64,000 nucleotides of DNA from Escherichia coli (lineage in GTDB: Bacteria > Pseudomonadota > Gammaproteobacteria > Enterobacterales > Enterobacteriaceae): NCBI RefSeq assembly GCF_024223415.1, contig NZ_CP100500.1. One strand, written 5' to 3'. The notes beneath the pieces were generated by a model, which was not told the DNA's origin, searched no databases, and was given only the letters and a program-made list of their open reading frames with translations. A program made the translations under genes and the position numbers. Below are positions 6,743 to 7,985 of the stretch, piece after piece. The first letter of the stretch is position 1; each line of letters begins with the position of its first letter.

Positions 6743-6896
6743 ATCAGCGGTAAGCTGTGCGTAGGCCAGCAAATGCGGGATTATTGCCCCTGTATATTCC
6801 GGCTCTCTGATAATGTGGTCGGATGTGTTGATTAAATAGTTTGTGCGAAAAATGCACCTGTAACCATCAGTTAACAACGGATATACAGGGGGGACC

Positions 6897-7067
6897 ATGA
6901 ATGATAAGGGGGTGCCGTTTGATGTGCTCCTGCAAAAGCTGAATGCTGCACGCGCCGCAAGGGAACGTGAGCGCATGAGTAATAACCCTGTCCCTCCTGA
7001 ATTACCTCGCCCTGAACATTTTCCGCTTGAGGATTTCATCAGGGGACGAATCCGAACAAAACGATAA
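6897..7067 (+). CDS. Small hypothetical protein (56 aa)
   Basis: ATG preceded by a G-rich SD; below the supplied ORF-track cutoff; shares the PxxFPLE(D/R)FI motif with the ORF at 7311. Confidence 0.3.
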   Translation: MNDKGVPFDVLLQKLNAARAARERERMSNNPVPPELPRPEHFPLEDFIRGRIRTKR

Positions 7068-7118
7068 CCGCCGCCGTGATATGAGGCATCACGACGCAAT
7101 GCATTACAGGTGAGCACC

Positions 7119-7235
7119 ATGAACAAATCCATATTATCCCCCACAGTTCTGGACGTAAACACAAAGCAGCGACAGATATTATTACGCGCCGTCATTAAAG
7201 CCAGACACGAGAAATTAAACCAAATCTTAAAATAA
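7119..7235 (+). CDS. Small hypothetical protein (38 aa)
   Basis: ATG preceded by aggtgag SD, same frame as neighbouring small ORFs. Confidence 0.2.
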   Translation: MNKSILSPTVLDVNTKQRQILLRAVIKARHEKLNQILK

Positions 7236-7310
7236 GATACGCCGCTACCGCTGTAAGTCTTCATCAGAAACAGAAAACGCCAGAGCAGATGAGCACGGAG
7301 GTAACTCTTT

Positions 7311-7505
7311 ATGAAAATAAACGAATCAGGGGAAATTACCGAAGCCAGCGTGGTACGCCAGCGGAGGCGGGAACGACGGGTACGGCCCCCCGCGCCATCC
7401 GATAATTTCCCGCTTGAGCGCTTCATCAGTGAACGGCCCCGCATACGCTGGAACGGCACAACCCCATACCCCGAGGAGAGACAGACAAAAAACAAACAGC
7501 GATGA
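7311..7505 (+). CDS. Small basic hypothetical protein (64 aa), paralog of ORF 6897..7067
   Basis: GGAGG SD; shares a roughly 25-bp DNA segment and peptide motif with the first small ORF. Confidence 0.3.
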   Translation: MKINESGEITEASVVRQRRRERRVRPPAPSDNFPLERFISERPRIRWNGTTPYPEERQTKNKQR

Positions 7506-7808
7506 TGAAATCTGGAGGCCAATACCATCACGCAGCCATCAGGAGATTGCTGACGCGCTTCCTGTTCGCTGGTGGCCTCGATGGTAATCACGCGCGGTTG
7601 TGCAGTGCTCAGGGCGATAAAACGCCACACAAAGGCCGTTTGTGTGTGCGCAAGGCGTGGGGTATGCTGTGTTCCAGCCATAATCGTTACTCCTGTTAAC
7701 GGTTTGGTTAGACGCCCTGCATGTGTGCCACCACTGCGGGGCGTTGTTTTTGTGGTGTCATTGGTATACATTGTCACCTTAATGGCATTATCACTACAGA
7801 GGTTTATC

Positions 7809-7985
7809 ATGTCAACCAATGACAACAAAAAAGAAAGATTTTCCGTACAACTACGCCTAGACGCAGATTTGTTCGAGCGTTTAAGTATTGCCATGAAAGA
7901 AGATGGCGACGATAACCGATCTGGATGGATCAAAAGGCTTTTACGACGCGAATTAGATAAACGCGGCATTGAGTCAAAAAGCTGA
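7809..7985 (+). CDS. Ribbon-helix-helix (CopG/Arc-like) DNA-binding protein (58 aa)
   Basis: Predicted beta strand then two helices (ERFSVQLRLDADLFERLSIAMKEDG...WIKRLLRREL) typical of RHH regulators; SD-like agagg upstream. Confidence 0.45.
   Translation: MSTNDNKKERFSVQLRLDADLFERLSIAMKEDGDDNRSGWIKRLLRRELDKRGIESKS

Follow-up and report, generated by a model that had tools for sequence, protein, structure and literature searches.

The window analysed here, a stretch of 64,000 nucleotides (nt) from Escherichia coli (contig NZ_CP100500.1), contains a 595-codon open reading frame (ORF) on the minus strand that lies opposite four small plus-strand ORFs (ORF1 to ORF4). Judging from gene content and gene order, the locus is the regulatory zone of a phage satellite of the EcCICFT073 type, i.e., a phage-inducible chromosomal island (PICI), integrated at tRNA-Pro. 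Our analysis favours, with a probability of roughly 0.6, the interpretation that the long frame is a read-through frame comparable to that of the eta/kil genes of P4, held open for ribosomes that cross antisense regulator genes and, in this island, extended by an inserted cassette. The features that carry this argument are as follows.

6455..8242, minus strand: putative eta-like read-through frame; first ATG 14 nt past the alpA stop, 595 codons counted from there
8257..8463, minus strand: alpA, homolog of P4 vis, encoding an excisionase-type helix-turn-helix (HTH) regulator (HTH regulator in the annotation of the Prokaryotic Genome Annotation Pipeline, PGAP; excisionase/regulator families in PHROG)
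8079..8234, plus strand: conserved block; intrinsic terminators at 8079-8107 and 8200-8234, a hairpin between them at 8125-8141, and at about 8161-8234 a candidate small RNA
7809..7985, plus strand: ORF4, 58 amino acids (aa), ribbon-helix-helix (RHH)-like by weak NikR-RHH and YlcI_YnfO_N matches and by hhalign
7787..7815, minus strand: predicted sigma-70 promoter of the icd-like operon, counterpart of P4 PLE (TTGACA-17-GATAAT, 11/12 consensus)
7748..7832, no strand: inverted repeat, candidate operator pair (arms 7748-7771 and 7809-7832, 24 nt, 83% complementary)
7518..7681, minus strand: icd-like gene, homolog of P4 Kil, nested in the long frame (NF033153, 52.5 bits; phrog_6196/1743)
6818..7517, no strand: 700-bp cassette, delimited by blastn break-points against the related loci L069, L080 and L060
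6455..6817, minus strand: N-terminally truncated gene (gene X) fused in frame to a 77-aa family gene (phrog_2512 / phrog_24341; tblastn homology from 6817)

Measured from stop to stop, the minus frame comprises 618 codons (6458-8311) and is the longest open frame among the six frames of the 64-kb window, confirming the 595-codon frame recognised in an earlier note on this DNA. The same note had estimated that such a length is very unlikely by chance, and this is borne out by mononucleotide shuffles, in which segment 6899-7505 was open in 5 of 20,000 cases and segment 7691-8311 in 0 of 20,000. When the region was divided into six sub-segments, the minus frame had no stops in any of them, whereas the other five frames contained 0 to 14 stops each and were stop-free in just 2 of 30 cases. 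Together with the stop statistics of the family given below, these counts rule out a chance origin of the open frame. The frame is composed of five segments fused in frame, namely an eta-like part, icd, the antisense side of the cassette, the truncated gene X and the 77-aa gene. Matches to hidden Markov models (HMMs) fall at residues 474-594 (phrog_2512) and at residues 188-246 (Icd-like, NF033153), so that the view that just the last 95 or so codons look like protein had overlooked the Icd-like gene. The minus frame is also open over about 300 codons of noncoding DNA, including a promoter, terminators, leaders and the 3' end of alpA. A log-odds scan of codon usage in the six frames carried no information, because the codons of island genes are atypical and the score chiefly rewards the lack of stops.

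The long frame is not peculiar to this locus: the whole family has it, as its equivalent of P4 eta/kil. When the 595-aa frame was used as a protein query, hundreds of ORFs of 340-660 aa labelled "Icd-like" were retrieved from E. coli and Salmonella, and in most of these the match starts just past alpA and ends at the Icd domain. Because a search with a long protein favours long ORFs, we sampled 80 IMG/VR loci by the Icd domain alone. Upstream of icd, the icd frame was open for at least 150 codons (up to 430) in 43 of 47 distinct upstream variants. Over 13,072 codons upstream of icd, the icd frame contained no stops, compared to 796 and 813 (6.1% and 6.2%) in the two sister frames of the same strand. 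In three of the four exceptions, an ORF of 254-313 codons in a different frame spans the region and ends at, or at most about 140 nt before, the icd start, and in the fourth the icd frame is interrupted by single stops only. As in the window, where alpA is the gene immediately preceding the long frame, the long ORF of loci in which an upstream gene was found usually either begins 8-19 nt past an AlpA-type gene or shares 7-11 nt with the gene before it. A scan of species-representative genomes with the Icd profile yielded a single, spurious Paenibacillus locus.

The arrangement has a precedent in P4, for which nested vis-eta/kil genes were reportedly described by Forti et al. in 1999 (J Bacteriol 181:5225). 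In the P4 genome (NC_001609), the frame spans 8168-8767, its ATG overlapping the stop of vis (ORF88) as ATGA and its end coinciding with the epsilon start. Residues 146-193 of Eta match NF033153 with 73.3 bits, which makes P4 Kil an Icd-like domain; the match came from the HMM, P4 having been missed when a phage collection was searched with the Icd domain by tblastn. As in P4, the AlpA/Vis gene of the window is followed at once by the long frame (with a 14-nt spacer in the window and an ATG overlapping the vis stop in P4), an Icd-like/Kil gene is nested in this frame, and replication genes lie downstream; for the internal promoter upstream of kil in P4, the window has a predicted counterpart. 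Unlike in the window, the P4 frame measures only about 199 codons and holds the CI RNA and its targets (Rfam matches to C4, isrK and c4-a1b1). None of these three RNA families was found in the window, in an Rfam search up to E = 5, or in EcCICFT073, and both islands bear antisense protein genes in place of the CI RNA. Furthermore, Kil in the window is not C-terminal, because its stop has been lost. PMC10111431, in summarising Forti et al. (1999), places a constitutive promoter inside eta and describes Kil as a truncated Eta; translation of Eta is stated there to prevent termination, so that transcription from the upstream promoter reads through to the downstream genes (PMC10111431).

The Icd domain also links the window to another known system. 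In the c4-icd-ant immunity operon of phage P1, translation of the cell-division inhibitor Icd is linked to the expression of downstream genes. Unlike P1, which is controlled by the C4 antisense RNA, the window gave no C4-like RNA match, and no ant gene follows icd in the island.

The closest counterpart is EcCICFT073 itself (locus L096; CFT073, NC_004431, 1379752-1381052), which the window resembles in gene order, late genes and the presence of a long open frame with antisense small genes. Its frame of 433 codons extends from 38 nt past alpA to the end of the icd-like gene and is antisense to an annotated YlcI/YnfO gene (59 aa) and to a 57-aa hypothetical gene of a family that we term FxLExF. 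Unlike in the window, icd of EcCICFT073 ends normally, small separate genes follow it and the island has no cassette. Its RHH protein belongs fully to YlcI/YnfO, to which ORF4 is distantly related, and the opening sequence of its long frame also opens a Bro-N gene in related loci. Helper phage is known to induce alpA of EcCICFT073, and AlpA to activate the downstream genes, the global repressor being unclear according to the authors (PMC6092414). The reporter named "ORF3" in that 2018 paper may correspond to the 433-codon frame.

What lies antisense to the long frame follows a common pattern. Related islands carry a gene for a YlcI/YnfO-type RHH protein, usually followed by a small FxLExF gene, and all antisense ORFs of both types are phased so that their third codon positions fall on those of the long frame. 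For this reason, the four ORFs of the window, like all four in the related locus L010, share one frame. In this phase, stops on the other strand arise solely at the codon junctions NNT|TAN, NNC|TAN and NNT|CAN, most of which are removable synonymously; such a phase would let synonymous changes keep the other strand free of stops. Indeed, 36 of 36 FxLExF genes and 39 of 40 RHH genes are stop-free in the antisense phase, against fractions of 0.33 and 0.18, respectively, expected from shuffling of codon order. The RHH genes display the pattern of coding on their own strand, with diversities of 0.286, 0.205 and 0.482 at codon positions 1, 2 and 3, the corresponding pattern being weaker in FxLExF genes (0.277, 0.267 and 0.358). 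The ratio of nonsynonymous to synonymous polymorphism (pN/pS) was lower in the frame of the small genes than in the long frame, both for RHH (0.33 versus 0.44) and for FxLExF (0.50 versus 0.63). The openness of the minus frame is kept family-wide, and the plus-strand genes carry a coding signature of their own. The suggestion of overlapping coding made in the earlier note stands in one sense, namely that a frame is kept open opposite real genes. What these results suggest as the target of selection is the openness of the frame and not its amino-acid sequence.

The region between ORF4 and the icd-like gene has the makings of a regulatory switch, as had been proposed. The icd-like gene starts at an ATG at 7681 preceded by an AGGAG Shine-Dalgarno (SD) sequence. 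The -35 element of its predicted promoter (7815-7787) overlaps the ORF4 start codon, and the inverted repeat flanks this promoter on both sides and covers the ORF4 ATG. The earlier proposal that the fourth ORF is RHH-like is supported by hhalign against the YlcI/YnfO-type RHH profile (E = 7e-5, probability 63%, 41 columns), and ORF4 occupies the same position as the YlcI/YnfO-type genes of related islands, an identical protein being encoded at this position in L010, L051 and L069. A sequence search of the PDB with ORF4 gave no match. ORF4 is thus a candidate repressor, which probably acts on the promoter of the icd operon through the flanking inverted repeat. On the minus strand, the leader that separates the predicted promoter from the icd ATG contains a stem-loop (7712-7744), and in L005 and L006 a hairpin with a different stem is found in the same place. 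In addition, a terminator-like hairpin with a T-run (CACACAAACGGCCTTTGTGTG GCGTTTTATC) is located at 7626-7646 on the minus strand, within the first 20 codons of the icd-like gene; it is a possible attenuator, the stem of which translation could melt.

The icd-like gene of the window is devoid of a normal C-terminus and stop codon. Other icd genes end in VMVFAARIRQGVxHVQ followed by the stop, overlapping the start of the next gene, and homology to them breaks at about 7517. The break corresponds to the edge of the 700-bp cassette. Locus L069, which has the same ORF4-type module, aligns to window positions 8107-7518 (87% identity) and 6817-6400 (93%), and the cassette replaces 125 bp of L069 that consist of the icd stop together with the start and first 33 codons of the next gene. 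Close relatives such as L069, which lack the 700 bp and in which icd has its ordinary stop and the gene after it its own start, run counter to the idea that the plus strand holds the remains of a decayed larger gene. The cassette and the block downstream are at least 98.9% identical in eight loci with unrelated upstream modules. Of 5426 complete E. coli genomes, 9 have the cassette, and 6 of these originate from chickens, their faeces or their meat. All available copies being at least 98.9% identical, comparison of frames within ORF1-3 is uninformative. A mobile-element origin of the cassette was rejected, as none of the repeats found pairs its two boundaries.

Downstream of the cassette, gene X and the 77-aa gene, which are separate and in different frames in most relatives, are fused in the window (tblastn), and the stop of the frame overlaps the ATG of the next gene (ATGAATAA). 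Gene X has lost its own start, and the open upstream frame is therefore the simplest route by which ribosomes could reach it. The cassette would derive from the divergent arm of a related island, carrying the tandem FxLExF genes ORF1, a decayed ORF2 and ORF3. With an antisense frame already open in arm DNA of this kind, the insertion would have linked icd through the cassette to the truncated gene X and the 77-aa gene, giving one frame of 595 codons. Tandem immunity modules in a single frame occur elsewhere: two Icd domains are present in a 629-aa ORF (P0007, P0023 and P0034), and two RHH and FxLExF pairs lie inside a 560-codon frame in L010 (5001-6683). In-frame fusion after recombination is thus a recurrent event.

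The small features of the cassette are listed below.

6897..7067, plus strand: ORF1, 56 aa, divergent member of the FxLExF family (family HMM 19.1 bits, E = 6e-5)
7075..7093, plus strand: copy of the leader hairpin (CGTGAT-loop-ATCACG), from an alignment of 35 leaders
7119..7290, plus strand: ORF2, 38 aa (7119-7235), and a downstream relic, with in-frame TAA stops at 7233 and 7254
7311..7505, plus strand: ORF3, 64 aa, divergent member of the FxLExF family (family HMM 13.8 bits, E = 0.003)

The four plus-strand ORFs of 56, 38, 64 and 58 aa were found as originally described: all starts are divisible by 3, placing them in one shared frame, and each is preceded by an SD-like purine run. ORF2 measures 38 aa from its ATG and 41 aa from a GTG at 7110. 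The peptide FPLE(D/R)FI and the DNA repeat that had been seen in both ORF1 and ORF3 mark a real small-protein family, the repeat being longer than first thought (31 nt with 81% identity, 7018-7048 versus 7405-7435), with a third, degenerate copy at 7248-7267. The FxLExF family comprises proteins of 56-75 aa whose N-terminal half is basic and precedes a nearly invariant motif, P..F.LE.F (P-x2-F-x-L-E-x-F); its 117 clusters, nearly all from Escherichia and Shigella, are all annotated as hypothetical and have no Pfam match. ORF1 and ORF3 display the conserved P..F.LE.F columns, and the scores listed above were obtained with a family HMM built without the window ORFs (that of ORF3 for the full sequence, with Z = 1000). 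The start region of ORF1, ACAGG-N7-ATGAATGATAA, resembles that of family members, and ORF1 also matches the recorded predicted protein P0194. P0218, an apparent frameshift variant of ORF1, was discarded, because the helicase of its contig is split into several genes, which we took as an assembly error. The AlphaFold model of ORF3 consists of two helices (predicted local distance difference test score 70, predicted template modelling score 0.27) and is too weak for a fold search.

ORF2 did not score significantly against the family HMM. It is preceded by the conserved leader and hairpin of the family, the window copy retaining the stem through compensatory changes, and is followed at 7248-7267 by the degenerate motif copy CCG CTG TAA GTC TTC ATC with an in-frame TAA; with low confidence, we regard it as a decayed family copy. 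Elsewhere, in 35 leaders from loci L013-L092, the leader hairpin is GC-rich (GCGCCGTGG-loop-CTACGGCGC) and lies between the RHH stop and the FxLExF start, where it could be an attenuator or a processing site. The position of ORF1 and ORF3 is atypical for the family, being downstream of icd and not downstream of the RHH gene. The notion of a single four-gene plus-strand cluster did not hold up: ORF1-3 belong to a cassette inserted downstream of icd, the promoter scan gave nothing sigma-70-like for them, and ORF2 looks decayed.

Taken together, these observations are consistent with the following model. Transcription that starts at alpA would have to cross about 0.55 kb containing an opposite-strand regulator gene, a promoter/operator region and plus-strand terminators before reaching the icd-like (kil) gene and the replication genes. 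A frame that begins 14 nt past the alpA stop and is in frame with icd would let ribosomes follow the polymerase across this region. By analogy with P4 Eta, their translation would prevent premature termination of the Rho type, for which the family-wide absence of stops is indirect support, and supply ribosomes to the coupled downstream genes. In the uninduced state, the icd operon would depend on its own predicted promoter (7815-7787), which ORF4 would repress through the inverted repeat. We infer that translation itself, against polarity and for coupling, is the selected property.

Several points weigh against this model. The first ATG of the long frame (8242) has no clear SD sequence, and with C/G at 0.96-0.99 the minus-strand RNA shows no marked excess of C or shortage of G. 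The conserved terminators of the region are on the plus strand, and we identified none specific to the minus strand that translation would need to suppress. The compared loci are mutually related, so that the counts of variants overstate their independence. The gap in pN/pS between the two frames is modest and third positions are shared, which leaves room for some protein-level constraint on the long frame. As for the proposed repressor, ORF4 scores 17.2 bits against YlcI/YnfO (NF041551), below the curated cut-off of 30, and is not a formal member of that family.

A further objection concerns AlpA. Proteins of the AlpA family can be antiterminators, as described for AlpA of Pseudomonas aeruginosa (PMC7969949), and read-through brought about by AlpA without translation is conceivable here. 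AlpA would then be a processive antiterminator, and the frame would be kept only for coupling to icd and to the start-less gene X. This would fit the activation of downstream EcCICFT073 genes by AlpA (PMC6092414), the loss of the gene X start in the window and the start-to-stop overlaps of the downstream genes. However, coupling to icd needs a short upstream ORF and not one of 200-430 codons, the SD of icd is strong, and in P4 it is the translation of the region itself that prevents termination (PMC10111431). We consider antitermination by AlpA an unlikely explanation of the frame.

Just as unlikely, in our judgement, is that the long minus-strand ORF encodes a real multidomain protein (an Eta or "Bro-network" protein with an Icd-like domain), the residues of which are under selection. 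Products of 340-660 aa bear the name "Icd-like protein" in PGAP and in many records, the Pfam domain Phage_ASH is found in some relatives, the EcCICFT073 version begins like a Bro-N gene of related loci, and eta is treated as a Bro-network gene in PMC10111431. Moreover, the N-terminal 75 or so residues are 71-84% identical across islands. However, this conserved "N-terminal domain" (8009-8240) equals a block of hairpins that includes the two plus-strand intrinsic terminators, the stems of which show compensatory changes between island types, and its conservation is explained by these. Also in this block, within 8145-8234 on the plus strand, is the candidate small RNA, which would measure about 75 nt, extend as far as the second conserved terminator and lie opposite the initial codons of the long frame. 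The extended -10 element ahead of it is conserved (TGATATAAT) in most related islands (compare L011, L060 and L086) and reads TATAAC (TT-TATAAC) in the window. Neither the candidate RNA nor the conserved block matched an Rfam family, and RNAalifold on the candidate RNA gave little, the two terminator types being misaligned. Beyond the N-terminus, only the Icd and phrog_2512 parts of the frame match HMMs, the middle is swapped wholesale between islands with the frame still open, a different frame covers the region in some islands, and the frame traverses a predicted promoter, terminators and genes with their own coding signature, all of which speak against selection on a protein.

Least probable of all is that ORF1-4 form an active divergent operon of small regulators with the open minus frame as a by-product of their codon usage: SD-like sequences precede all four ORFs, ORF1 and ORF3 belong to a widespread family, ORF4 is RHH-like and codon-order shuffling leaves 18-33% of such genes antisense-stop-free, but about 300 noncoding codons are open as well, sister frames hold 6% stops, the observed stop-free proportions exceed the shuffle expectation, and ORF1-3 reside on an insertion inside the main operon.

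The read-through interpretation builds on what is already known, the eta/kil mechanism of P4 having its precedent in 1999; what is new is the lack of a CI RNA, the antisense protein genes in a fixed phase and the extension by a cassette. In the literature searched, we found no description of the family-wide dual-strand arrangement, of the hidden RHH and FxLExF genes or of the annotation artefact. A more general proposal, which we advance tentatively and rate somewhat below an even chance, is that EcCICFT073-type satellites keep a frame of 200-600 codons for the act of translating and not for its product, over antisense genes of fixed phase, and that the antisense RHH gene, with its FxLExF partner, constitutes the repressor module of Gram-negative PICIs. 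If so, the reach of the rule would be considerable, with even an inserted cassette and two downstream genes held in a single frame. The homology between P4 and PICIs, for which Int, AlpA and Pri-Rep were the sole three components noted in 2018, extends to the Kil/Icd domain and to the eta-type architecture. The open frame, the fixed antisense phase and the avoidance of stop-creating junctions provide a large natural data set for testing selection on translation that acts without selection on the product. At the same time, a candidate repressor is nominated for Gram-negative PICIs, along with an uncharacterised partner family.

The results also bear on annotation. In a record 100% identical to the window (NZ_CP127316, strain Ch1), PGAP calls the whole 595-aa frame a "host cell division inhibitor Icd-like protein", and because of this call all four plus-strand ORFs are left unannotated. 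Calls of the same kind, naming a read-through frame, appear to underlie many of the 340-660-aa "Icd-like" proteins in RefSeq and GenBank. This would explain a recurrent artefact, in which long "Icd-like" calls can hide real small genes on the opposite strand, as in strain Ch1.

The assignment of the island follows from annotation and gene order, which show int and alpA, then DUF4222, the helicase and SSB, next to tRNA-Pro, in agreement with the Gram-negative PICI type, for which a fixed att site and a length of about 10-15 kb are characteristic. The position of int is as follows.

8960-10219, minus strand: int, island gene

The island gene set comprises int, alpA, the region described above, a 66-aa gene, DUF4222, a RepA-type helicase, SSB, PerC, ProQ/FinO, major capsid and head-decoration genes, all on the minus strand; the small ORFs are, as had been stated, transcribed opposite to this main operon. 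Gene order and late genes agree with those of EcCICFT073 in strain CFT073. The chromosomal neighbours are yejM and tRNA-Pro(ggg) (10420-10496) on one side and yejO on the other. Ordinary chromosomal features of the window include an Rfam match to the REP-derived naRNA4 (59958-60035, plus strand) and an L25 leader upstream of rplY (14212-14237, minus strand).

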